IMG/VR virus record: IMGVR_UViG_3300023179_000156
Coordinates: 1-51,141 of that record
Origin: a virus
Taxonomy: Duplodnaviria > Caudoviricetes
Length of the DNA stretch: 51,141 nt
Direction: 5' to 3' (one strand)
The notes beneath the pieces were generated by a model. It did no database searches. It was not told the DNA's origin and saw nothing but the letters and a program-made list of their open reading frames with translations. Within the stretch, counting starts at the first letter, position 1. Each line of letters starts with the position of its first letter. Shown one piece after another: positions 22,288 through 38,661 of the stretch. The position numbers and the translations under genes were made by a program.

Positions 22288-22595
22288 TGTTCGGCTGGCT
22301 GGCACGACGGGCCGACGACCTGTTCGGCCGCAGCGGGGCGTGGGCTCGCGTGCGGCGGGAGCATCTCCAGCGTGAGGCGGCGTGTGCGGCGTGCGGGAGG
22401 TCCGTCGACCTAGAGGTGCATCACATCCATCCGTACCACAAGCGGCCGGAACTGGAGTTGGACGATGGGAACCTGATAACCATGTGCCGCGACTGCCACC
22501 TGTCAGTGGCCCACGCCTACGACTGGAAGTCGCACCGGCCGCAAGTTCGCGACCTCGCCCGCGCGATTCGGTCGGCTACAGTAGTGCGCGGCTAA
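22287..22595 (+). CDS. HNH endonuclease
   Basis: CxxC...'LEVHHI'...'NLITMCRDCH'. Confidence 0.88.
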   Translation: MFGWLARRADDLFGRSGAWARVRREHLQREAACAACGRSVDLEVHHIHPYHKRPELELDDGNLITMCRDCHLSVAHAYDWKSHRPQVRDLARAIRSATVVRG

Positions 22596-23449
22596 CTGAC
22601 TTTTGGGAGGACGTCGGGGGCGCTGGCCCGCACGACGATCCTTGGGTCGAGATACTTGCGTGTGGTCTTGGGGTCGGAGTGATCAAGGATCGCCTGCGCG
22701 GACAGTCCGGCGGCCTCCGCGTATGACGCAGTGGTTTTCCGAATCTTGTGGAACTTGCACGTTCTGTCGGCCGGGAGGCCGGCGCGGCGGATGATGATGC
22801 CCAGGCGAGTCCAGAGATAGGACTTCATGCGCGGGAATGGAAACACCAGATCTTCGGCGGCTCGACCGCAGCGGATCTGATCCAGCGCCTCTTTGGTCTC
22901 TTGGCTGACGGCCCGCAGAATGTCTCGTCGACCGCCCTTGCGGTTCTCTGCGGAATAAAGAATCGTCGCCTCGCGAATGTCCCGCCACATCAGGGTCTTG
23001 ACGGCACCAACCCTTTCGCCAGTGTCGTAGCACACTAGCAAAAACGCGCGCCACCAGAGGGCCGCCGGGATGCCGTCATAGACTGCTGTCTCCATGCCGG
23101 CCGACTGCATAATCAGCCGCATCTCGTCGGACGTCCACGCCTCCGGCACGCGCTCCGGCACTTTGACGAGGCCGATCGTCGGCCACATATCAACCATACG
23201 CCTACGCGCCGCCAGTTCCCACATGGCGCGAAGTTGGCTCCGGTCCTTGGCGGCCGTGGCCGGCTTGCGCTCGCGGACGCGCTTGGCCAGAAACCGGGCT
23301 ACCTTGAGTTCCTCAAGGTCTGCGAGCGTCGGCTCGTGGCCGAGAGACTTGCCGAACTCCGAGATCGTGATTTTGTAGAGCGTCTCGGTGTGTTTGCAGA
23401 TGCCTTTGAGCGGGATGTAGATCTCTTGCAGAAAGTCAGTGAGTTTCAT
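22592..23449 (-). CDS. Tyrosine recombinase / phage integrase
   Basis: R (YDTGER), K (ENRKG), HxxR (FHKIR), LDH and Y (TTRKY) catalytic residues. Confidence 0.9.
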   Translation of the reverse strand: MKLTDFLQEIYIPLKGICKHTETLYKITISEFGKSLGHEPTLADLEELKVARFLAKRVRERKPATAAKDRSQLRAMWELAARRRMVDMWPTIGLVKVPERVPEAWTSDEMRLIMQSAGMETAVYDGIPAALWWRAFLLVCYDTGERVGAVKTLMWRDIREATILYSAENRKGGRRDILRAVSQETKEALDQIRCGRAAEDLVFPFPRMKSYLWTRLGIIIRRAGLPADRTCKFHKIRKTTASYAEAAGLSAQAILDHSDPKTTRKYLDPRIVVRASAPDVLPKVS

Positions 23450-28925: not shown

Positions 28926-30572
28926 ATGGCAGAAAAGACGGCCAAACTGATTGGATCTGCGGGGTCTGGGAAGACTACGGAACTTCTGCAGGTCATGGAC
29001 GGTGCCAAGAACGCCCTCGGCGGTAGCCCGTTTGCGATCGGGTTCGCCAGTTTCACGCGGGCCGCCCGCGCCGAGGCAGTCGCTCGGGCCAGTGCCTCAT
29101 GGGGCGTCCCTCCGGAGGTGCTGGCCAAGGACGGGTGGTTCAAGACCTGCCACGGCGTCGCCCACCGGCAGTTGGCCGTGGCCAAGGGGCAACTGATCGA
29201 CGATACCAGGGCGAGCCAGACATGGCTGGCGGACGCCCTCAAGGTGGACATACGGACGATCATCGACGATGACAGCGGCTACGCCGTGTATGCCGGCGAC
29301 AGGGCGGCGGCCTCGGCCCTGAACTGCTGGGAAGTCAGCCGCGCCCGTATCGAGCCGCTCAAGAAGACCATTGAGCGTATGATGCGGTCTGGGCAGGACG
29401 TCCCGCCGTTTGCCCAGTGCAAGCAGTTCATCCAGCGGTACGAGCAGGCCAAGCGGCTGGAGGGCCGCTGCGACTTCAGCGACCTGCTGGCCCGCTACGC
29501 CGGCATCCACTTTGAGGCGGACGGGCTGTACGAGGTCGATCCGGAGGGCGAACTGCCCTGTGGGGTTCGGGCCTGGATCTTCGACGAGGCCCAGGACGCC
29601 TCGGCCCTTGTGGACCGCGTCTGCAAGCGGTTGGCGGACGGCCCTGACGTCAAGTGGGTCTACATCGCCGGGGACCCGTTCCAGGCCGTGTTTTCCTTTG
29701 GCGGCTCCGACGCCAGACACTTCCTGTCCTGGGAGGCGGACAAGACGCGGATCATGCCGAAGTCATACCGCTGCCCGGCGCCGATTCTGGCTCTCGGCGA
29801 GCGCTGCCTGCGGCAGATGCACGAAGGGTATTTCGACCGCGGGGTGGCCCCGGCAGACCATGACGGCAAGATTTCTCGGGCGGGCGGGCCGTCTGCGGTC
29901 GTTCCTAGCCTGGACCCCAAGCGCCCGACGCTGATTCTGGCCCGCTGCAACTTCACGCTTGATGACTGGGCGGAAGCCCTTCGCAAGCGAAAGATGCCGT
30001 TCGCCAAACTCAAATCCAAGGACAACACCGCCGCCCTGCGGGGCATCAAAGCCCTGTGGGACCTGGAGCATGGCGAGGCGGTGTCTGGCGGCGACTTTGC
30101 CTGCGCCATCCAGGAACTTCCGTCCCGCGGCAAGGACGGGACGCTCCTCGACCGCGGCACGAAGACCCTGTGGCAGAACGAACTCACGGTTCGCCGCTGG
30201 GACGTCGTGTTTCCGACCGACCTGGAAGACACCGGCATGACGCAGGCCATGATCGACCGGGTGAATGGCGGAACATGGGGGGATCTGGTGACCGGGGGGG
30301 ATCGCTGGCGGAACTCGGCCGTCAAATGGGGCGCCGAATTGGCGACACAGCCACAAATCAGGCTCGGCACAATTCATGCTGCAAAGGGCATGGAGGCCGA
30401 CGTTGTCGTAATGTCGACCACCACCACGCGACGGATCGACGAGGCCCAGCGGGCCGACCGGGAGCAGCACGACGAGGAGCGACGCATCGAGTACGTCGGC
30501 GTGACCAGGGCCAGACACGAACTGATTGTGTCCTCGGAGCCGGTGGATTACCGGATGAACCTGAAACTATGA
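28926..30572 (+). CDS. UvrD/Rep-like SF1 helicase
   Basis: 'GSAGSGKT', 'FTRAA', 'DEAQD', 'GDPFQ', 'SYRCP', 'TIHAAKGME', 'YVGVTRAR' motifs. Confidence 0.92.
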   Translation: MAEKTAKLIGSAGSGKTTELLQVMDGAKNALGGSPFAIGFASFTRAARAEAVARASASWGVPPEVLAKDGWFKTCHGVAHRQLAVAKGQLIDDTRASQTWLADALKVDIRTIIDDDSGYAVYAGDRAAASALNCWEVSRARIEPLKKTIERMMRSGQDVPPFAQCKQFIQRYEQAKRLEGRCDFSDLLARYAGIHFEADGLYEVDPEGELPCGVRAWIFDEAQDASALVDRVCKRLADGPDVKWVYIAGDPFQAVFSFGGSDARHFLSWEADKTRIMPKSYRCPAPILALGERCLRQMHEGYFDRGVAPADHDGKISRAGGPSAVVPSLDPKRPTLILARCNFTLDDWAEALRKRKMPFAKLKSKDNTAALRGIKALWDLEHGEAVSGGDFACAIQELPSRGKDGTLLDRGTKTLWQNELTVRRWDVVFPTDLEDTGMTQAMIDRVNGGTWGDLVTGGDRWRNSAVKWGAELATQPQIRLGTIHAAKGMEADVVVMSTTTTRRIDEAQRADREQHDEERRIEYVGVTRARHELIVSSEPVDYRMNLKL

Positions 30573-31024
30573 ACCTGCTTTTCGACACCTCGCCGGAAGA
30601 AGTTCCGGACCAGAAGAAAAAAAAGACCGCCCGCAAGAAGCCGGCCACGGAGCCGGCTCGGCCAGCGCAAGTCACGGAAATCAGGCCCGTTGAGATCATC
30701 GGCCGCTCGGACGGAGACTACACCTGCGACTGCGGGTCTACCTATTTTGACATCCTGGACGATTTTCGAGGGAAGTGGCTGATTGAGTGCTGCTTCTGCG
30801 GCTTCAAGATGGACGTTCTGGCCGTCAGGACGCTCAGGCCGGCTGTTCCAGAGTTTGTTTTCTTCGACGGTCGTCACTCCGGCATGACACTTGCACAAGT
30901 GTCAGAAACCGAACAAGGAATGGCATACATCAAGTGGTGTGCAGAAAAGCACAAGAGCGGATCGGTGAAAGAGGCTTGCAAGGAATGGCTTGTCTCTGTA
31001 GGCTACACGGCCACACAACGCTGA
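30569..31024 (+). CDS. Zn-finger-containing hypothetical protein
   Basis: CDCG and CCFC motifs; C-terminal 'FDGRHSG.TL..V......YIKW'. Confidence 0.6.
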   Translation: MNLLFDTSPEEVPDQKKKKTARKKPATEPARPAQVTEIRPVEIIGRSDGDYTCDCGSTYFDILDDFRGKWLIECCFCGFKMDVLAVRTLRPAVPEFVFFDGRHSGMTLAQVSETEQGMAYIKWCAEKHKSGSVKEACKEWLVSVGYTATQR

Positions 31025-31036
31025 ACGGAGTCAGCC

Positions 31037-31207
31037 ATGCTCGTAGTGACAAGGAAAGCGGGCGAGAAAGTCCTCATCCCAAGCAAGGGGATCGAGGTCG
31101 CCATCGTGAAAGTCCTGCCAAACGGATCGGTCCGCGTTGGCATCAAGGCGCCGGCAGAAGTCGGTGTCTACAGGGAAGAACTCCTGACGAGCAAGAAAAA
31201 TGCTTGA
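31037..31207 (+). CDS. csrA: Carbon storage regulator CsrA/RsmA homolog (56 aa, absent from ORF track)
   Basis: MLVVTRKAGEKVLIPSKGIEVAIVKVLPNGSVRVGIKAPAEVGVYREEL matches the CsrA pattern ML.L.R..GE....V.IGI.AP..V...R.E. Confidence 0.9.
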   Translation: MLVVTRKAGEKVLIPSKGIEVAIVKVLPNGSVRVGIKAPAEVGVYREELLTSKKNA

Positions 31208-31290
31208 CCTCTGGCTGAACGCGGCGGCTGTTCTGGCGCTGGCCGGCGCGGCGATCTATGTGACGATCCTCCCGTACACAACATGGTTCG

Positions 31291-31671
31291 ATGAATAAAA
31301 CCGAGAGACAACGGGCAATGCGGGCCATCGAGGGCTCGCCCGCAAGAGAGTCGATGATCCGATGGAACAAATCGCAGGCCGCCAAAGACGCATGGCGGCG
31401 GTACTACAACTCGGAGCATGGTCGCGAGAGGCATCTCGCCGCAAGAAGGAAAGGGACGCCGCAATATGAGAAGCGACACGCCTTGCGTGCAGAGTATCGC
31501 GCTGCCGCAGCAAACAACCGCCGCCGATGGTCCGCCGCTGACGAGCAGCGGCTGCGAGACTTCGTCGCCGCCGGAGAGAAAGAGGCGCGAATCGCCACCA
31601 TCCTCGGCCGGAGCCTGTCGGGGATCATGCACAAAAAGCGAAAGATGGGCCTCACGGTGGCGACCTGCTGA
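31291..31671 (+). CDS. Hypothetical protein with C-terminal HTH-like motif
   Basis: 'RRWSAADEQRL...IATILGRS'. Confidence 0.55.
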   Translation: MNKTERQRAMRAIEGSPARESMIRWNKSQAAKDAWRRYYNSEHGRERHLAARRKGTPQYEKRHALRAEYRAAAANNRRRWSAADEQRLRDFVAAGEKEARIATILGRSLSGIMHKKRKMGLTVATC

Positions 31672-31878
31672 CAAGAACCTTCCGTGCGACCTGGAGTACG
31701 TTGTCGTTGGCCAGTTTCTTGGCGACGGACTCTACAGAAACTTTGTCGGCTGGTTGAGGGACGGCGTCTGGTACGCCTACATACCGCACAACGAGCCGCA
31801 GCACGACTTCATGGCGGAAATGGGGGACGTCTGCGAGTTCGACTTCTGGATGCCTGTCAGCGACCCAGGGGATGAAAG

Positions 31879-32595
31879 ATGAACATCATCACCGGGGACT
31901 GCCTGGAAGTCATGCGGCGGCTGGCCGACGAAAGCGTCGACCTTATCCTGACCGACCCGCCCTACAACATCGGCGTCGACTACGGCGCAGGAAAGAAAGC
32001 CGACCTACGCGATGACTACGCCGAGTGGTGTCGCGAGTGGATCTCCCAGTGCCACCGGATCCTGTCGTCAACTGGGTCCCTATGGATCATCAGCGGCCAG
32101 GAGTACGGCGCCGAGATCGACCTGGGGATTCTGGCCGCCGGCTTCGCGATCAGGAACCGAATCACTTGGCACGAGACGTTCGGCGTCTATTGCCACAACA
32201 AGTTCGGACGCACGAGCCGGCCGATTTTCTACGCTGTCAAAGACCCCAAGAACTTCACGTTCAACAAGGATGCCGTGACCGTGCCGTCCGACCGCCAGAC
32301 CAAGTACGGCGACAAGCGCGCAGCAGCCGGCGGCAAGATCATGGGGGACGTTTGGACGATCAGTCGCGTGTGCGGGACTTTCAAAGAGCGAGTGAAGGGC
32401 GTCCCGACGCAACTTCCGTCCGAACTGGTGCGCCGCATCGTCGGCGTGTCGAGCAATCCCGGCGACACGGTCCTCGATATTTTCGCAGGCTCCGGCACGG
32501 TTTGTGCAGTTGCACAGGAAATGGGCCGGCATGGTGTCGGCATCGAACTCAATCCCGAATACGCGGAGATCGCACATGGACGCGGATCGGTCTGA
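31879..32595 (+). CDS. DNA amino-methyltransferase (N6A/N4C, beta class)
   Basis: DPPY motif before 'VLDIFAGSGT' SAM-binding motif. Confidence 0.92.
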   Translation: MNIITGDCLEVMRRLADESVDLILTDPPYNIGVDYGAGKKADLRDDYAEWCREWISQCHRILSSTGSLWIISGQEYGAEIDLGILAAGFAIRNRITWHETFGVYCHNKFGRTSRPIFYAVKDPKNFTFNKDAVTVPSDRQTKYGDKRAAAGGKIMGDVWTISRVCGTFKERVKGVPTQLPSELVRRIVGVSSNPGDTVLDIFAGSGTVCAVAQEMGRHGVGIELNPEYAEIAHGRGSV

Positions 32596-32794
32596 CTTCA
32601 GCGAAGAAGTGACGCTCGACAATGTCCTGCTCGCGATCGAGTCAACTCGCGGCGCTTTCGCGTTTGCGACCACGGCGATCGGCAAGGACAAGGGCGGGTC
32701 TGGCGTGGCGTTTGCCGGCAGGATGCTGGACGAGGCGCTTTCTGTCTTTCACGAGCAACTGGTTCAGTTCTTCAAAAAAAAGATGCAGGAGTAG
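32576..32794 (+). CDS. Hypothetical protein
   Basis: GGAG RBS; operon context. Confidence 0.5.
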   Translation: MDADRSDFSEEVTLDNVLLAIESTRGAFAFATTAIGKDKGGSGVAFAGRMLDEALSVFHEQLVQFFKKKMQE

Positions 32795-32799
32795 CACAG

Positions 32800-33000
32800 A
32801 TGCGCGCAACGCTGACGTTCCAGATCCCGGACGAAATCCAAGAGTTCAACGCCGCCATGGGCGGAGAGCAGTTGGCCGACCTGATGCGCCGCATTCAAGT
32901 TGCGTGCCAGGACGCCATTGATCACCCAGAGTCCGACGATGGCGAAATTCGCCTCGCCGAAGAGATCCTCGACGAAATCAGCGAGGCCGACATTGAGTGA
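32800..33000 (+). CDS. Hypothetical protein
   Basis: AGGAG RBS; acidic 66 aa. Confidence 0.6.
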   Translation: MRATLTFQIPDEIQEFNAAMGGEQLADLMRRIQVACQDAIDHPESDDGEIRLAEEILDEISEADIE

Positions 33001-33136
33001 GGACGCTAGCGATATTGGCTGTGTGCTTTCTGGCCGGAGTCGCCGTCGCGGCAGCGGTGTGCTGGAGCGAATCGCCGCCGAAGCCGGCCAGTTTTTTTGA
33101 ACCGCAACGCGGCGCAACATCCCAAAGTGACTGACC

Positions 33137-33517
33137 ATGCCGTGCAACAGTGACCATCTGCAATCGACGCGACTGGAGGTCGAGTGCAGCCGCATGTACC
33201 TCCTGCTCGATGAGTTGGACGGGAAAGGGCCTCCGGACCCGCAGTCTGGGGGCTGGGATGGCTACGACAAAAGGGCGTACAGCAAGCGGATAGATCGAGA
33301 ACTGGCCGACGAACTGACGGCGGAACTGTGCGAGCGAGTAAAGAAGATCAAAGACCTCACGAAACACTCGCTCGAACTGCAAGTGTGGGCCAGAGACCAC
33401 AGGATCGCCGACGCGAAGCGGAAGAAGCGAGAGGCTGCGGCGAAGCAGAAAGCAGCCGTTCGCAAGGAAGCGATGGCGAAGTTGACGCCGAAAGAGCGAA
33501 AGGCGCTGGGGTTGTGA
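33137..33517 (+). CDS. Hypothetical protein, paralog of 34924-35286
   Basis: Both start MPCNSDHLQ and end AKLTP.ERK.LGL. Confidence 0.8.
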   Translation: MPCNSDHLQSTRLEVECSRMYLLLDELDGKGPPDPQSGGWDGYDKRAYSKRIDRELADELTAELCERVKKIKDLTKHSLELQVWARDHRIADAKRKKREAAAKQKAAVRKEAMAKLTPKERKALGL

Positions 33518-33543
33518 GAACACGGCATCGCGGGAGAAGTGAA

Positions 33544-33813
33544 ATGGACGTTGTGACACGCATCAGCCGCTGGTTGGAAGAAGAGGACGCAGACGACGCA
33601 GGCAAGACGCTCCGCGACGCCCGCGAGGAGATTATCTCGCTGCGAGCGAAGGTCGCAGACTCAACGGAGTCTCTGATGAAGGCCATAAAAATCATCTCCG
33701 AAACTTCGCGCCGCGCTGGCTATTGCGAGGGAACGCTGATGATGATCCGCATCGGGCATCCCTGTCCTGAGTCGGCGGCTGCTGCGGCGCTTAAGGAAAT
33801 CGGTCGTGACTGA
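33544..33813 (+). CDS. Hypothetical protein
   Basis: GGAG RBS; 'MD.V.R...L..AR.EI..LR' phage small-protein pattern. Confidence 0.55.
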   Translation: MDVVTRISRWLEEEDADDAGKTLRDAREEIISLRAKVADSTESLMKAIKIISETSRRAGYCEGTLMMIRIGHPCPESAAAAALKEIGRD

Positions 33814-33979
33814 AGAATCGAAACCGTCGGCCGAGCAACTCAAGCCGCCGTCCTACTACCGCGACCCGAGGCCGACGTTGACCGACGAGGAGCGGGAGGC
33901 GATTGCCTACTACATCGGGACGGGCGGGCCGGATCGGGTGGACGCCGCGCTCCGCGACCTACTGGAGCGGTTGAACTGA
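33806..33979 (+). CDS. Hypothetical protein (LTDEEREAI...LRDLLERL), paralog of 34607-34834
   Basis: 57-aa ORF not in track; shared motifs with 34607 ORF. Confidence 0.65.
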   Translation: MTEESKPSAEQLKPPSYYRDPRPTLTDEEREAIAYYIGTGGPDRVDAALRDLLERLN

Positions 33980-34026
33980 GAATGCCAGCGATCAGCGGCT
34001 CCGTCCGCTGCATCGCGTGGTTCTGT
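33977..34026 (-). mobile_element. attC-like site A (short, degenerate R box)
   Basis: + strand AAT-6-GATCAGCGG...T CCGCTGCATC-5-GTT; two unpaired bases. Confidence 0.7.
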
Positions 34027-34043
34027 GATCGCAGGAGAGAGGC

Positions 34044-34274
34044 ATGAAATCTGTGTGCGGCAGGTGCGGGAGCGAAGGCGAAACCGGGTGGTACGCCTCG
34101 TCTAGGTCGATGCCGTACAGCGGCGAGACCGTTGTCGCGTGGGATCAGCAGCGGGGCATTCCAAGAGTGTTGAAGTGGGACAACGGAAAATGGTTGACGG
34201 CCAAGGGGAAGACGATTCGTTGCTGGAGAATCACGCATTGGTTTCCGGTGTCGGGGCCAGCGGGTTACGCATAG
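34044..34274 (+). CDS. Cassette gene, DUF551-like hypothetical protein
   Basis: 'W.....MP' and 'ITHWFP' motifs; between sites A and B. Confidence 0.6.
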   Translation: MKSVCGRCGSEGETGWYASSRSMPYSGETVVAWDQQRGIPRVLKWDNGKWLTAKGKTIRCWRITHWFPVSGPAGYA

Positions 34275-34276
34275 CC

Positions 34277-34367
34277 ACAGAACGCCCGCGATCACCAGCG
34301 GCGAGGAGAAGACGATGACTGAAACGAACGACACTGCCGAGCCGACTGGTGCATCAGGTGGTTCTCA
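34277..34367 (-). mobile_element. attC-like site B (contains RBS and ATG 34315)
   Basis: AAC-6-GATCACCAG CGGC...GCCG A CTGGTGCATC-5-GTT. Confidence 0.85.
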
Positions 34368-34566
34368 CCGGCTTGCGTTTGTTGCTGATGCCGCGAGGTT
34401 GGCTGCACTCATGTCCTGCCTACTGACTACTCAAGTGCGGTGGAACCTTGACAACTGGCGCACCCATTGGCCCTTTGCGTGGGTGAACGTCAGCGGCGTG
34501 ACGCAAGTTGAGGTGTATGTGCCGCCCAGAGGAATGGCAATCGTCCGGCTGAACTGGATGGAGTGA
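34315..34566 (+). CDS. Cassette gene, hypothetical protein starting inside site B
   Basis: AGGAG and ATG in loop; stop TGA within next R box. Confidence 0.6.
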   Translation: MTETNDTAEPTGASGGSHRLAFVADAARLAALMSCLLTTQVRWNLDNWRTHWPFAWVNVSGVTQVEVYVPPRGMAIVRLNWME

Positions 34567-34642
34567 GAACACGGAAGATCAACGGCGGCCACCGGAGGAC
34601 TCAACCATGACACATGACGTAGCAGGGCCGTCCGTTGCTCAC
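34564..34642 (-). mobile_element. attC-like site C (apparent 12-bp deletion in right arm)
   Basis: Nearly identical to site F but lacks ATCGGCTGGTTC. Confidence 0.75.
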
Positions 34643-34834
34643 AATACGTCAATGGCTGTGGCCAGACTGTCGGCGGCGAACACATGGCTACAGGAGGAAA
34701 TCAAGCGGCTGCGGCTGACCGACGCGGAGCGGGAGGCGATTGCGGATGCAGCCGGCAGGTACGTCGAAGGAATAACGCCGAAGGCAAAAGAGCACGCCTC
34801 CACGCTGCGCGGCCTGCTGGAACGGCTAGGCTGA
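34607..34834 (+). CDS. Cassette gene, hypothetical protein starting inside site C
   Basis: GGAGG and ATG in loop; 'LTDAEREAI...LRGLLERL'. Confidence 0.7.
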   Translation: MTHDVAGPSVAHNTSMAVARLSAANTWLQEEIKRLRLTDAEREAIADAAGRYVEGITPKAKEHASTLRGLLERLG

Positions 34835-34920
34835 GAACGCCAAAGATCAGCGGCTCCCGGCCACTGATTCACCAACTTGAACGGCGGATACCGGGAGTCC
34901 GCTGCATCGCGTGGTTCGCA
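34832..34920 (-). mobile_element. attC-like site D
   Basis: AAC-6-GATCAGCGG CTCCCGG...CCGGGAG T CCGCTGCATC-5-GTT. Confidence 0.88.
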
Positions 34921-34923
34921 AAT

Positions 34924-35286
34924 ATGCCGTGCAACTCTGACCACCTTCAGGCGACACACCTTGAGTCGGAGATGAGCAAGGTCGCGTGCCTTCTTGACGA
35001 GTTGAATGGAAAGAAGCGGATAAACCAAGACCACTGGCGCGGCTATCACCCTAGCGTCTACAGCCAGCGATTCAATGCAGACGAGATGACGGCCGAACTA
35101 TGCTCGCGCCTCCAGGGAATGGACGTTTCAAAATGCAGCCTTGAGATGCAGATTTGGTGGCGCGACCATCAGGCGGCAGACAAGGCGCGAGCCGAGAAAG
35201 CGATCAAGAAGGCCAAGACCGAGAAGCAGAAGAAAGCGGCACTTGCGAAACTTACTCCGCATGAGCGGAAACTGCTGGGGCTTTGA
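34924..35286 (+). CDS. Cassette gene, paralog of 33137-33517
   Basis: End-to-end similarity to the 33137 ORF. Confidence 0.8.
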   Translation: MPCNSDHLQATHLESEMSKVACLLDELNGKKRINQDHWRGYHPSVYSQRFNADEMTAELCSRLQGMDVSKCSLEMQIWWRDHQAADKARAEKAIKKAKTEKQKKAALAKLTPHERKLLGL

Positions 35287-35290
35287 CGTT

Positions 35291-35379
35291 TGCGAACACG
35301 GCAGATCAACGGCGGCCACCGGAGGATTCACCATGACGAAAGACGTAGCGGGGCCGTCCGTTGCATCGGCTGGTTCTGT
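35291..35379 (-). mobile_element. attC-like site E (RBS and ATG 35333 for a 28-aa peptide)
   Basis: AAC-6-GATCAACGG CGGCC...GGCCG T CCGTTGCATC-5-GTT. Confidence 0.88.
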
Positions 35380-35517
35380 AGAATGCGGACAATCCCCTCA
35401 AGGGGCTTGTAAATCCTGAATGGACAGGTCTTCGGGAGTTGATCGCCCGATGTTCCCGCCACACCTCTGTTGCTGCGGCACAAGTGCAATCGGGCGGGCC
35501 ATCGAACAGAGGAAATC

Positions 35518-35796
35518 ATGAGCGAGCCACGTTGGATACCAGTGACTGAACGCTTGCCCGAAGAGGAGCAGGACGTTCTTTTTGTTGTGGACGACGGCGT
35601 GAGGGTTGAAGGGCTGATGTTCTCTGGCTGGTACGAGAAGGGTAATTTCTGGGAACACGCACCGGATGGCGAGCAATACGCCAACAACATTGGAGGATAC
35701 GAAGGCGTTCACTTCTGGTCGCCAATACCAAGCCGGTCGGAACTGTTCAAAGACAAGCCGCCAAGGAACGGACGGCATCGGTGGGCGGAGAAGTGA
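35518..35796 (+). CDS. Cassette gene, DUF551-like hypothetical protein
   Basis: 'WIPVTERLPE...VLF' and 'V.FWSPIP' motifs. Confidence 0.7.
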   Translation: MSEPRWIPVTERLPEEEQDVLFVVDDGVRVEGLMFSGWYEKGNFWEHAPDGEQYANNIGGYEGVHFWSPIPSRSELFKDKPPRNGRHRWAEK

Positions 35797-35803
35797 CTTT
35801 CCT

Positions 35804-35892
35804 ACAGAACACGGAAGATCAACGGCGGCCACCGGAGGATTCACCATGACACATGACGTAGCAGGGCCGTCCGTTGCATCGGCTGGTTCTCT
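35804..35892 (-). mobile_element. attC-like site F (RBS and ATG 35846)
   Basis: Same architecture as site E, near-identical sequence. Confidence 0.88.
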
Positions 35893-36115
35893 ATCTACCG
35901 GCTGGATTGTTGAGACTCACAAGACGTGGAACGGCGAGCCGAACTGGTGGAGAAACGGACACGGGTGGATGAAGACCCTCCGTCAGGCGACGGTGTTCGT
36001 AAAAAAGAACTCCGCGATCAGTAAATGCGTTCAGTTGGGAAGCGGAGTTTGCACGGTGCGGGAAATCAGTTTTTCGACAGGGCGGGCCGTTTACCCGCCG
36101 TCGCGAACGGAATAG
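35846..36115 (+). CDS. Cassette gene, hypothetical protein starting inside site F
   Basis: MTHDVAGPSVASAGS N-terminus encoded by the site; stop overlaps next R box. Confidence 0.65.
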   Translation: MTHDVAGPSVASAGSLSTGWIVETHKTWNGEPNWWRNGHGWMKTLRQATVFVKKNSAISKCVQLGSGVCTVREISFSTGRAVYPPSRTE

Positions 36116-36204
36116 AGAACACGCGAGATGAGCGGCATCGCCACGGAGGACGATGATATGACGAAAGACGCTGCGGCGATGTCCGCTCCATCGGCTGGTT
36201 CTCT
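36114..36204 (-). mobile_element. attC-like site G (RBS and ATG 36158)
   Basis: AAC-6-GATGAGCGG CATCGCC...GGCGATG T CCGCTCCATC-5-GTT. Confidence 0.88.
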
Positions 36205-37003
36205 CCCGCTGGATCAGATCATCTGCGGGGATAACTGCGAAGTGATGCGACAGATGCCGAGCGAGTCGATTGACCTCGTGGTGACTTCACCGCCTTACGA
36301 CGACCTTCGCACCTACGGCGGCCACTCGTGGGACTTCTACGGGGTGGCGTGGAATCTCAAGCGGCTGCTGAAGCCGGGCGGGGTGATTGTGTGGGTGGTG
36401 AACGATGCGACGAAGGACGGGAGCGAGACTGGCAGCTCAATGCGGCAGGCGCTGCACTTCCAAGGGATCGGGCTGAACCTGCACGACACGATGATTTATC
36501 ACAGAACAGGACCATACCCGGACACGGTTAGGTATTGGGCTTCTTTTGAATACATGCTCATTCTGAGCAACGGGAAGCCGCGTTCAGTCAATCTGATTCG
36601 AGACAAAAAGAACGCGACCGGAGGAACAAAGGCGACAAGGCCGAAACTCAACCGCCAAAAGAATGGCGCGATGCCGGACTATCAAGGCAGGGAGCGGACT
36701 AGGCACGCTTTTGGTGTCAGGGAAAACGTCTGGAGGATTAACGCCGGAGGCGGTGTTAGCACGAAAGACGCAGTAGCGTTTCAGCATCCCGCGATCTTTC
36801 CAGAAGCCCTGGCCCGCGACCACATACTCTCGTGGAGCAACCCTGGCGACGTGGTGCTTGACCCGTTCAGCGGCAGCGGCACCACGGCGAAGATGGCCCG
36901 AGAGGCAGGGCGGCGGTTCATCGGGATCGAGGTGAATCCGGAGTACGTGGAGATCAGCAGGAAACGGCTGGCACAGCAGGCGCTGCCGATGGGCGTGGCG
37001 TAG
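36158..37003 (+). CDS. Cassette-borne DNA amino-methyltransferase (SPPY, beta class)
   Basis: 'TSPPY', 'HPAIFP', 'VLDPFSGSGTT' motifs. Confidence 0.92.
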   Translation: MTKDAAAMSAPSAGSLPLDQIICGDNCEVMRQMPSESIDLVVTSPPYDDLRTYGGHSWDFYGVAWNLKRLLKPGGVIVWVVNDATKDGSETGSSMRQALHFQGIGLNLHDTMIYHRTGPYPDTVRYWASFEYMLILSNGKPRSVNLIRDKKNATGGTKATRPKLNRQKNGAMPDYQGRERTRHAFGVRENVWRINAGGGVSTKDAVAFQHPAIFPEALARDHILSWSNPGDVVLDPFSGSGTTAKMAREAGRRFIGIEVNPEYVEISRKRLAQQALPMGVA

Positions 37004-37006
37004 TGG

Positions 37007-37102
37007 AGAGAACCATGATTATGCGGAATCCTCGCCGCCTAATTCGGCAGAAACCCGCGTTTCGCGGCCGAACGGCGCGGGGATGACGGTGTTATGCGGA
37101 AT
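37007..37102 (-). mobile_element. Terminal atypical site H (attI-like candidate)
   Basis: R box complementary to the MTase cassette start; 11-bp direct repeat TTATGCGGAAT at 37019 and 37092; no attC L boxes. Confidence 0.55.
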
Positions 37103-37138
37103 AGGTCGCTTTGCTCGCAGCCGAGCCCAGAGGAATAA

Positions 37139-37402
37139 ATGTCCATCAGAGACGCGTTCGACGAGTCCGGCTTGACAATGGCGGAGTTCGTCATCGGCAC
37201 TGTTTCGCTGTTTCTGATCTGTGCCACCGTCATCGCGGGGGCCGCGTGGATTTGCAGGGAGATCGCGACCGCAAATGACGGAAGAATCTCGCGGTCTCCG
37301 TTTGCGGTGACATTTGAACACGACGGACACAGGTTCGTTCGCGCTCCGGGAGGATCCATGTTGCACCATCCAGATTGCCCATGTCACAAAAAGGAGAAAT
37401 GA
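37139..37402 (+). CDS. Membrane-anchored hypothetical protein
   Basis: TM helix; 'EHDGH.F' and 'HHPDCPC' terminus. Confidence 0.65.
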   Translation: MSIRDAFDESGLTMAEFVIGTVSLFLICATVIAGAAWICREIATANDGRISRSPFAVTFEHDGHRFVRAPGGSMLHHPDCPCHKKEK

Positions 37403-37725
37403 TGCGTAAGTCCATCGACGTTCCGCTTCTGTTCAAACTCTGGCACACGGAACTCAAGAACGACGAACTGGCGTCCAGGATCGGCGTCGCGAGGGGCCAC
37501 CTGTGGTATCTGCGGCAGAAATACGGGCTCCCCGAGCGGAAAAAGCGCCGCACGCGGCCTCCATCGGACGACCCGACTCCGGAGGAGATAGCAGAGCGCT
37601 GTGCCGAAGTGAGGCGCGGATGGTCTGCAGAGGAGGAAGCGAGGAGACTGTGCGGCAAGCCGGCCCGCTGGAGGCCGCCCCAGTACCACAAGTTCGACCC
37701 AAAAACCATGACTTTTTCGTGTTGA
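37399..37725 (+). CDS. HTH-like hypothetical protein with 'PTPEEI..RCAEVRRGW' motif
   Basis: AGGAG RBS; motif shared with 39489 ORF. Confidence 0.65.
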   Translation: MMRKSIDVPLLFKLWHTELKNDELASRIGVARGHLWYLRQKYGLPERKKRRTRPPSDDPTPEEIAERCAEVRRGWSAEEEARRLCGKPARWRPPQYHKFDPKTMTFSC

Positions 37726-37758
37726 CACAGAGGCTACAGGGCCACACACTAGGGCTTC

Positions 37759-38037
37759 ATGCTTGAGAGAACAATCGTCGCGAAGGTGATCGCAACGGCG
37801 AAGTCGCTGGGGTGGTTCGCTGTCAAAATCCACGGCAACGCCTACCAGATGGCTGGGCTCCCGGACGTCCTGTGCATCAAGGGCGGGCGGGCAGTGTGGA
37901 TGGAGGCGAAGGTTCCAGGAAACGAGCCGAGCCCGATCCAAGCGCGCCGCATGAAGGAACTGGCCGCGGCCGGGTGTCCGTGTGCCGTGGTGTTTTCGGA
38001 CAAGGACGCGAGAAAGTTCCTGGAGGAGTGCGTGTAA
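37759..38037 (+). CDS. VRR-NUC / PD-(D/E)xK nuclease
   Basis: 'E..I...V', 'GLPD', 'MEAK', 'SPIQ' motifs. Confidence 0.85.
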   Translation: MLERTIVAKVIATAKSLGWFAVKIHGNAYQMAGLPDVLCIKGGRAVWMEAKVPGNEPSPIQARRMKELAAAGCPCAVVFSDKDARKFLEECV

Positions 38038-38661
38038 ATGGAGGAATCTTTCCTGGAGCCCCTGCAGAAAAGCCTCGTCCGCGGCCCCTGCCGCGTCGCC
38101 GTTGACATCGGCGCCAACGACGGCGAGTGGACGCTGTGGCTGGCCGAGAGGTTTGACCACGTTCTGGCCCTGGAGCCAGACCCCCGCGCGGCAAAGAAAC
38201 TGCGCGGCGCCCTGCCGGCCAATGCCACGCTGATCGAGGCCGCCTGCTGCCCGGAGGCCGGTGTTGCCGACTTCTACTTGCGCGAAAACCCAGACCAGTC
38301 ATCCATTCTGCCAGAGCATCCGATCGGCTGCGCTGACCAGCGCGAAGCCCCAGTGCAGTCAAAGTCGACCGTCAACGCCATGACGATGGACGGGATTCTT
38401 GACGCCGCGCGCAGTCTTTTTGGCTGCGACGAGATCGACTTCGTGAAACTGGACATCGAGGGCGCAGAGCATTTGGCCATGAACAGCGCCACGCCGTCCC
38501 TGTTCAGAAACACTCGCTGGCTCGTGGAGGTTCACGACAACCGGGTCGAGGTCGGCGCGGCTGTTCGCAGGCTGGGCCACGAAGACCTGCAGATCGTCAA
38601 TCATCCGCATCCAGGCGCCCACCCAAACCACCTCTGGATCCTTGTCAATGAATCCCGATGA
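38038..38661 (+). CDS. FkbM-family SAM methyltransferase
   Basis: 'VDIGANDG', 'LEP', 'IDFVKLDIEGAE', 'VEVH' motifs. Confidence 0.88.
   Translation: MEESFLEPLQKSLVRGPCRVAVDIGANDGEWTLWLAERFDHVLALEPDPRAAKKLRGALPANATLIEAACCPEAGVADFYLRENPDQSSILPEHPIGCADQREAPVQSKSTVNAMTMDGILDAARSLFGCDEIDFVKLDIEGAEHLAMNSATPSLFRNTRWLVEVHDNRVEVGAAVRRLGHEDLQIVNHPHPGAHPNHLWILVNESR

Follow-up and report, generated by a model that had tools for sequence, protein, structure and literature searches.

The genome of a lake-water phage, represented by the entire IMG/VR virus record IMGVR_UViG_3300023179_000156 (51,141 bases, about 90% complete by rating; this whole stretch is referred to as the window), probably carries an integrase-less array of integron-type gene cassettes in which the genes are encoded on the bottom strand of their attC recombination sites. 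The phage is a tailed one, with a major head protein (phrog_10, E 2.5e-39) and an open reading frame (ORF) of 1455 aa that has the size of a tape-measure gene, and the window also encodes an SNF2 helicase, a Prim-Pol and two N6/N4 DNA methyltransferases. Seven attC-type hairpin sites, named A to G, lie within 2.2 kb (33977–36204), all on the + strand, which is the coding strand. From its 5' end, a site opens with a 7-nt box whose last three bases are AAC, followed by an unpaired spacer and the first half of a stem; beyond a variable loop, the second half of the stem leads to a further spacer and to a closing box that starts with GTT. In all full sites the two central spacers are unpaired and measure 6 nt (5' arm) and 5 nt (3' arm). 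Two extra bases always stand on the 3' arm, a T and, six pairs on, a C. Both boxes are intact in five of the seven sites; A has AAT in its 5' box, and C lacks the final 12 nt, i.e., the 3' spacer and the GTT box.

Judged by sequence and predicted structure, these hairpins are putative integron-type recombination sites (attC), with which they share the AAC/GTT boxes, an unpaired spacer of 5–6 nt, extrahelical bases opposite AAC six pairs apart, a variable terminal loop and complementary cassette ends, as well as direct sequence and structure homology to Pirellulaceae attC arrays; their lengths of 50–92 nt compare with a published range of 57–141 nt. As at least two clustered attC sites with no intI, the seven sites would count as a cluster of attC sites lacking integron integrases (CALIN), a class defined by the program IntegronFinder; the assignment here draws on the covariance model and on the search for IntI.

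Detection and folding of the hairpin sites

A covariance model was trained on sites from related phages, with B, D, E, F and G in the training set and A and C outside it. Run on the 51,141-base window, the model returned exactly seven sites, all on the + strand, scoring 74.7–87.3 bits for B, D, E, F and G, 48.8 bits for C and 47.9 bits for A. The minus strand at the same seven places scored 12–16 bits, and beyond the seven sites no match in the window had E < 0.08. Folded as single-stranded DNA (ssDNA), five of the seven sites beat nearly all of their shuffled versions; the z values of A, D, E and G fall in the range -2.8 to -3.4. The same ssDNA fold is adopted by B and F with weaker z, and C folds poorly (z -0.7). 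In an alignment of 107 sequences (A1), the AAC and GTT columns are at least 90% conserved and are paired in 103–106 of the 107 rows. Compensatory change is evident, with both sides changed in 9 of 19 pairs and the inner stem covarying by type. The alignment contains 119 double-change cells versus 55.8 in shuffles, none of 500 shuffles reaching 119, and 89.8% of cells are paired, versus 26–46% when the partner is slid. The search pattern left the outer stem no freedom to vary, and this covariation signal therefore comes mostly from the inner stem. A search against Rfam gave three sub-threshold chance matches, none of them on a site.

Related phage sites and complementary cassette ends

Relatives were collected as IMG/VR stretches matching the two stem halves of the sites in this window, which yielded at least 120 stretches. 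Among the matches listed, 122 of 146 pattern matches show the family length of 62–66 nt together with flanking boxes, and a looser motif finder located, again among the matches listed, 259 sites in 88 loci, in arrays of up to 14 sites. Spacing is typically 200–500 nt, and the sites are never found on both strands of one locus in the 88 loci. In a distant blastn search of 33100–37100 against 50,697 phage records, the methyltransferase alone was matched (15 records, at most 3% of the query each); by the same search, the site family is absent from all INPHARED phages.

The boxes fall into classes, including TGAGAAC with GTTCTCA, ACAGAAC with GTTCTGT and GCATAAC with GTTATGC. In the window, six pairs of neighbouring boxes can be tested, and in all six the 3' box of one site is complementary over its full 7 nt to the 5' box that follows, the sixth partner being a terminal box at 37007–37013. 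Across the relatives, 3' box n complements 5' box n+1 at all four variable bases in 129 of 171 neighbours, as against 683 of 5000 random pairs, and the mean match over the four variable bases is 3.61 for neighbours, 2.17 within a site and 2.06 for random pairs. Complementary cassette ends are also present in 31 of 56 cases among the bacterial relatives described below. Such complementary ends would be the signature of former circles with a fully paired box, opened by crossover inside that box. In the GCATAAC/GTTATGC class (e.g., loci L004, L013, L030 and L042), the 5' box contains, on the coding strand, a TAA stop ending one base short of the crossover, and the GTTATGC 3' box holds an ATG, so that one palindromic box can give both a stop and a possible start.

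Polarity of the sites and bacterial counterparts

In attC sites as described by Nivina et al. 2016 (PMC5027507), the spacer measures 5–6 nt, strand exchange takes place at the bottom-strand AAC, and two or three extrahelical bases stand on one arm. The bottom strand is marked by these bases lying on the arm opposite AAC, the first and the last six pairs apart, the furthest being T and the first usually G (PMC5027507). The phage + strand has its AAC in the 5' arm and its extra bases, spaced by six pairs, in the 3' arm; since the extra bases oppose AAC with this spacing, the + strand would correspond to the attC bottom strand.

Bacterial matches to the search pattern were mostly chance singles, and the loci kept were those with full flanking boxes (L130, L131, L139, L151, L174, L189, L200, L209, L214, L225, L240 and L241). 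True bacterial arrays are found in Novipirellula herctigrandis, Rubripirellula and other Pirellulaceae/Planctomycetota, as well as in Blastocatellia and other Acidobacteriota metagenome-assembled genomes (MAGs), and the phage-derived covariance model identified 71 sites in eight bacterial array loci. Integron integrases (IntI) above the TIGR02249 cut-off of 265 are present in Novipirellula (384 bits) and in a Rubripirellula MAG (393 bits). In Novipirellula, 20 sites at 1232499–1249824 all lie on one strand, in the manner of the phage + strand, and run towards intI at 1251272–1252207. Read on the other strand, this array leaves intI like a classical integron, and therefore the phage-like + strand is most simply taken as the bottom strand. 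Three independent lines, i.e., the extra bases, the position of Novipirellula intI and the breakpoints described in the next section, thus support the + strand as the predicted bottom strand. Further long attC arrays of the same family, without an integrase, are found on contig 1 of Novipirellula herctigrandis at ~8.42–8.57 Mb (L200 and L240), ~7 Mb from the intI-linked array, and an IS110-family transposase (PF02371, E 2.4e-28) lies inside a Novipirellula cassette array (L200, 4745–6007). A Pfam search with ten long ORFs from Novipirellula arrays, five per strand, returned the IS110 transposase and a sub-threshold HEAT match only.

The coding strand of the bacterial cassettes was judged from the position of intI, from GC content at third codon positions (GC3) and from open-frame calls. 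Of the 157 phage cassettes, GC3 places 94 in sense and 19 in antisense, with 31 ambiguous and 13 uncalled; of the 45 bacterial cassettes, 4 are sense and 19 antisense, with 6 ambiguous and 16 uncalled. Cruder open-frame calls, which taken alone are ambiguous for 119 of the 157 phage and 32 of the 45 bacterial cassettes, gave sense/antisense ratios of 32/6 in phages and 0/13 in bacteria. These GC3 and open-frame calls indicate that the phage cassettes have their genes the opposite way round from the bacterial arrays. Family matches on the + strand of the window belong to the methyltransferase, the DUF551 gene and the phrog_11759 gene, and the layout of a classical cassette, in which the ORF lies on the attC top strand and is followed by its own attC, with the cassette promoter Pc on the attI side, is not what is found.

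The hairpin and the gene that follows it

To locate breakpoints, all site pairs sharing 150 nt on one side only were compared. The 29 pairs with a common upstream gene only have hairpins of 0.66 median identity, and in all 25 distinct upstream-shared pairs listed the likeness goes no further than the AAC box. The 43 pairs with a common downstream gene only have a median of 0.87, with 53% reaching at least 0.85, and many of them are identical from the base right after AAC onward. Because the likeness breaks at the AAC box, the unit of exchange appears to be a hairpin together with its downstream gene, and the crossover would fall in the 5' box, where the bottom-strand rule places it. At the level of families, one hairpin family is kept in 16 of 27 downstream-gene families found in different upstream contexts and in 2 of 18 upstream-gene families (Fisher p 0.0017, for families that are not fully independent). 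This difference supports the proposal of a first-pass annotation of this DNA by which an attC goes with the gene that starts in it; the polarity read by that annotation is supported by the three lines given above. In the exceptions, 11 of 27 downstream-gene families and the 8 of 19 protein families with more than one leader, the break is at the GTT box and adjacent spacers differ, which would fit rarer top-strand crossovers or, alternatively, homologous exchange.

Predicted translation starts in the hairpin loop

Loop ATGs are present in sites B, C, E, F and G, at 34315, 34607, 35333, 35846 and 36158, respectively, each 6–8 nt after a Shine-Dalgarno (SD) motif GGAGGA or GAGGAG, just as the first-pass annotation had placed them; sites A and D have no loop start. 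Its reading of these ATGs as gene starts agrees with the open frames of B, C, F and G and fails for E, where the loop frame runs for 28 codons and the DUF551 gene starts at 35518. The leader peptides that it quoted are correct translations, and upstream stops do fall in or against the next 5' box, namely TGA at 33977–33979 (A), TGA at 34564–34566 (C), TGA at 34832–34834 (D) and TAG at 36113–36115 (G), the first of these being the stop codon by which gene 33806–33979 ends inside site A.

The same arrangement recurs in the relatives, where 133 of 190 long sites (250 nt of sequence downstream) have an SD-preceded loop ATG. The frame of this ATG stays open for at least 50 codons in 122 of the 133, as against 10 and 15 in the shifted frames, and once duplicates are removed the figures are 109 of 120, versus 9 and 13. 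In 119 of the 122, the frame passes through the 3' arm and the GTT box in a single common register, giving leaders that end in S-x-A-S-x-G-S. Ninety-one loop-start ORFs are followed by a next site, and 64 of them stop no more than 12 nt from its AAC, with 28 stops in TGAGAAC and 11 in TAAC. It is these frame statistics (122/133, with 119/122 in one frame) that argue for the hairpin as a putative portable translation-start module, as had been suggested from the window alone. A shared N-terminal tag on unrelated proteins, a search for which was proposed at the same time, is seen among the relatives: the leader type of C, E and F heads 11 different, unrelated protein bodies in 12 sites, and that of G heads 4 in 5. 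For the methyltransferase, the family matches start at residue 20 (PHROG) or 38 (Pfam), and upstream ATGs lie inside site G only.

When the sites are folded as RNA, the mean unpaired probability is 0.55 from the SD to the AUG, versus 0.04 and 0.12 in the arms, and the folds of B, F and G range from -30 to -42 kcal/mol. A loop start is seen in 122 of 248 phage sites versus 1 of 62 in the homologous bacterial arrays; the other half of the phage cassettes start 5–40 nt past the site, often with an SD of their own. Cassettes without a loop start (e.g., at 34920–34926) often begin 2–10 nt past the GTT box, and 23 such ATGs have no SD motif. In these cassettes, folding of the hairpin brings the stop of the previous gene, in the 5' box, and the ATG to the base of one stem, a geometry that suggests translational coupling across the hairpin.

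The window encodes a CsrA homolog at 31037–31207 (+; PF02599, 53 bits versus a cut-off of 27), and CsrA is encoded in four of the five array-bearing virus records examined (including G002, G003 and G005), which possibly form one lineage. A GGA-containing SD in an apical loop is the kind of target that CsrA binds, and the loop-start hairpins display such an SD in their apical loop; the GGA-bearing loops might place the loop-start cassettes under the phage-encoded CsrA.

Recombinase, shuffling and transcription

A complete integron, i.e., intI and attI beside the array, is not found in the window. The only tyrosine recombinase, at 22592–23449 (-), is a Xer-like protein of 285 aa that scores 31–43 bits versus cut-offs of 220–335. 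Homologs occur in all five related array-bearing records, four at E ≤1.6e-47 and one weakly at 2.3e-9; this co-occurrence is weak evidence because the five records were chosen by site pattern and may represent one lineage. Compared with Novipirellula IntI, the recombinase aligns only near the catalytic motif (36 residues, E 0.012), and in the ordinary reading it is a lysogeny integrase or a dimer resolvase.

To look at the cassettes in populations, assembled contigs of other lake/freshwater samples were compared with the window. Single window cassettes recur there at full identity, and cassette B is present as a 291-nt contig (34280–34570) with no differences in runs X1 and X3. Two contigs are rearranged, one joining the end of B to F (X3) and the other joining the end of the DUF551 gene to C (X4). 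Both joints lie inside 34 nt common to C and F; the contigs are therefore evidence of shuffling as such, by whichever mechanism. The short joints of run X1 (sides of 20–37 nt), many of which fall in repeated site sequence, were not counted.

A sigma-70 consensus scan of 30500–38500 gave no promoter-like sites, and terminator-like sites in the same interval are no more numerous than in shuffles. The lack of sigma-70-like promoters, and of terminators on the + strand, across 30500–38500 is weak evidence in keeping with the suggestion of the first-pass annotation that the cassettes would be read through from the phage operon with no need for a Pc. None of the sequencing runs listed with the stretch is an RNA run.

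Weighing of the alternatives

Several observations weigh against an array of integron-type cassettes with genes on the bottom strand. TIGR02249 found no IntI in the window (E up to 10) or in five related virus records, and the first extra base is C instead of the usual G, a feature shared by the homologous Pirellulaceae attC sites. By GC3, 19 of the 157 phage cassettes are antisense, 31 ambiguous and 13 uncalled. A productive loop start is present in just four of the seven window sites (B, C, F and G), that of E being abortive. The major head protein, searched against 301 Planctomycetota genomes as a guide to the host, has matches in only 7, at 29–33% identity. More than one hairpin family occurs in 11 of 27 downstream-gene families, and more than one leader type in 8 of 19 multi-member protein families, so hairpin and gene are not always one unit. 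Finally, because the search pattern was taken from this window and the related phages share ancestry, the counts over relatives are not independent events and their p-values overstate the case.

If the polarity were instead classical, each gene would belong with the hairpin that follows it, and the loop starts would be incidental, the following gene lying directly against the attC of the previous cassette. Such a pairing is favoured by the resemblance of gene 33806–33979 plus site A to gene 34607–34834 plus site D, which extends across the stop and the whole site (family D5), and by the 11 of 27 downstream-gene families in which the hairpin differs. However, a single hairpin family is retained in just 2 of 18 upstream-gene families, the likeness in all 25 distinct upstream-shared pairs listed ends at the AAC box, and the C-termini of the 34607–34834 gene family precede at least five hairpin types in the relatives. 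Moreover, by the extra bases and the position of Novipirellula intI, the crossover arm is the 5' one as read on the coding strand; we thus regard classical polarity as very unlikely. Homologous recombination within the conserved 20–35 nt of the sites, without a site-specific enzyme and in the manner of the promoter early stem-loops (PeSL) of T4-type phages, could draw on the highly conserved arms, and the two rearranged contigs do join inside the 34 nt common to C and F. Breaks would then be expected anywhere in the arms, however, and not at a 3-nt AAC with differing adjacent spacers; complementary ends would not be made, and the bacterial relatives of the sites belong to true integrons, which leaves homologous recombination a decidedly unlikely source of the array.

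The hairpins could also act at the RNA level only, as processing sites, translational operators or CsrA targets that were spread by duplication. The stable RNA folds of B, F and G, with SD and AUG exposed in the loop, the presence of CsrA in this phage and in four of the five array-bearing records, and sites without a known recombinase all agree with such elements, yet these would not explain the complementary ends (129/171), the breakpoints exactly at the AAC box or the homology with the 71 bacterial sites, whose attC arrays include one beside intI, and no Rfam family is matched. A purely RNA-level role therefore strikes us as extremely improbable, whereas a second, RNA-level role in addition to recombination is likely to be part of the best explanation. 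As for the enzyme, the Xer-like recombinase of the phage, instead of a host IntI, might recombine the sites, in line with its homologs in all five related records and the lack of any IntI found in these phages. Its likeness to IntI is limited to the 36 residues noted above, its score falls below every curated Xer/IntI cut-off, and lysogeny or dimer resolution would be its ordinary role, so that we consider its involvement unlikely.

Proposed mechanism

For the preferred reading, an array of integron-type cassettes with genes on the attC bottom strand, a cassette as read on the coding strand would open with a C and the 6-nt spacer, continue through hairpin, GTT box and gene, and close with a box that ends in AA; the crossover would divide the 5' box after its second A, ahead of the C. 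The hairpin would precede its own gene and move with that gene, and the stop codon, often inside the 5' box, would remain attached to the gene upstream. The variable loop may have evolved, in about half of these cassettes, into a translation-initiation region, with SD and ATG in the apical loop and with the 3' arm and GTT box specifying, in a fixed frame, the last residues of a leader of ~15 residues. Each cassette would then be a full SD-to-stop unit needing only transcription from the surrounding phage operon. The cassettes are presumably moved by a host integron integrase, Pirellulaceae-like as judged by attC likeness; the loop ATGs are probably used, transcription probably reads through the array, and rarer GTT-box crossovers may swap leaders in frame.

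A more far-reaching and tentative possibility, to which we give limited credence, is that phages keep a "mirror-image" cassette pool that is moved by host IntI and isolated from the host in expression, with the hairpin serving as recombination site, ribosome-loading loop and fixed-frame leader. If so, capture in either direction would leave the gene in antisense, a phage cassette with respect to the Pc of a bacterial integron and a bacterial cassette with respect to the phage operon; in addition, the single frame of the GTT box (119/122) would permit in-frame leader swaps by rarer top-strand crossovers.

Relation to known systems and significance

In integrons, selection of the bottom strand inserts promoterless genes in the sole orientation in which Pc can express them. 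The phage sites differ from integron attC sites in that the genes lie on the bottom strand, the hairpin stands before its gene, the loop carries SD and ATG and one arm is coding; the phage array further differs from integrons in having no IntI found, no recognised attI or Pc, and C rather than G as first extrahelical base.

Clusters of attC sites without IntI have been reported in phages, with 17 CALINs in 10,705 NCBI phage genomes and five methyltransferases among their cargo, and IntI1 recombined five of six phage attC sites assayed, the bottom strand working best (Qi et al. 2023, PMC9892861, accessible text). The array described here shares with those CALINs the attC clustering without IntI and the methyltransferase cargo (PMC9892861). 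Co-oriented cassettes in two phages are described there as "most typical of bacterial arrays", and neither bottom-strand genes nor starts within attC are mentioned in the accessible part of the main text; the supplementary tables might bear on orientation (PMC9892861). In class 1 integrons, as reviewed in PMC8876359, the ORF-11/ORF-18 initiation region in attI1 aids translation of the first cassette. There, too, a recombination site with SD and ATG helps translation of the adjoining cassette, yet the ORF-11 arrangement involves the fixed platform attI, a short separate peptide, translational coupling and the first cassette only (PMC8876359). Unlike attI1, the phage attC is mobile and would supply the gene's own start and N-terminus. 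The PeSL of T4-type phages, in the accessible descriptions, are likewise repeated intergenic stem-loops with expression signals; they flank small accessory genes in hyperplastic regions and are associated with the gain, loss and exchange of these genes, but they are promoter-terminator motifs exchanged by homologous recombination and have no AAC/GTT boxes, complementary ends or attC homology (PMC2839356, PMC4122927).

In the literature searched, with subscription journals and supplementary files outside its scope, we found no prior description of bottom-strand genes or of starts inside attC. Integrase-less phage attC clusters are already published, and the reversed, start-bearing layout was not found in print.

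The relatives point to a large natural pool of cassettes (259 sites in the 88 phage loci listed) with the same recombination geometry and the genes the other way round, in which the "variable terminal structure" of attC would have been turned into a translation start. Integron-type exchange would then be a general route by which phages swap small early or accessory genes, methyltransferases included, and attC sites could gain coding and regulatory roles, which bears on the open question of the joint origin of cassettes and attC sites. On the practical side, attC finders that assume an ORF before its site will mis-assign such cassettes, and the cassettes offer compact natural "plug-in" units running from SD to stop.

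Cassettes and neighbouring genes in the window

All of the following features are on the + strand. Site A (33977–34026) is a short hairpin with the 5' box TGAGAAT and no loop start (-13.9 kcal/mol, z -3.3; 47.9 bits, E 5.5e-13). The 76-aa gene after it (34044–34274) has its own SD and an ATG 18 nt past the site, and gave no match in Pfam or PHROG. The 5' box ACAGAAC of site B (34277–34367; 74.7 bits) complements the GTTCTGT of A, and its loop holds the SD GAGGAG and the ATG at 34315 that opens gene B (34315–34566, 83 aa), which ends with a TGA inside the 5' box TGAGAAC of C. Site C (34564–34638; 48.8 bits) is of the type of E and F with its 3' end lost; the ATG at 34607 in its loop opens gene C, or Q2 (34607–34834, 75 aa), a paralog of 33806–33979 (repeat families D5 and D7) whose TGA stop is in the 5' box of D. 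Site D (34832–34920; -20.1 kcal/mol, z -2.8; 78.5 bits) has no start in its loop, and gene P2 (34924–35286, 120 aa; phrog_11759, E 2.1e-30) begins at an ATG 4 nt past its 3' box with no evident SD.

Site E (35291–35379; -22.7 kcal/mol, z -3.4; 82.3 bits) has the 5' box TGCGAAC, the complement of the GTTCGCA of D. Its loop ORF (35333–35419) is the 28-codon frame mentioned above, and the DUF551 gene of cassette E (35518–35796, 92 aa; PF04448, E 6.4e-06, 27.4 bits versus a cut-off of 22) has its own SD and ATG. In site F (35804–35892; 87.3 bits; RNA fold of -31.4 kcal/mol), the 5' box ACAGAAC complements the GTTCTGT of E, and the SD GGAGGA and the ATG at 35846 lie in the loop, from which gene F (35846–36115, 89 aa) extends to a TAG stop overlapping the 5' box of G. 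Site G (36114–36204; -21.9 kcal/mol, z -2.9; 76.4 bits), with the 5' box AGAGAAC complementing the GTTCTCT of F, has the SD GGAGGA and the ATG at 36158 in its loop and leads into the N6/N4 DNA methyltransferase (36158–37003, 281 aa), which is matched by PF01555 over residues 38–268 (E 1e-41) and by phrog_67 over residues 20–278. Beyond 36208 the covariance model found no family hairpin in the window; the methyltransferase cassette ends with the terminal box AGAGAAC at 37007–37013, the exact complement of the 3' box of G, and this is the side where an attI would lie.

To the left of site A, 33137–33517 is a paralog of P2 and 33806–33979 a paralog of Q2, both without full sites, the former followed by just a box-plus-spacer remnant at ~33515–33527; the two look like former cassettes with decayed sites.

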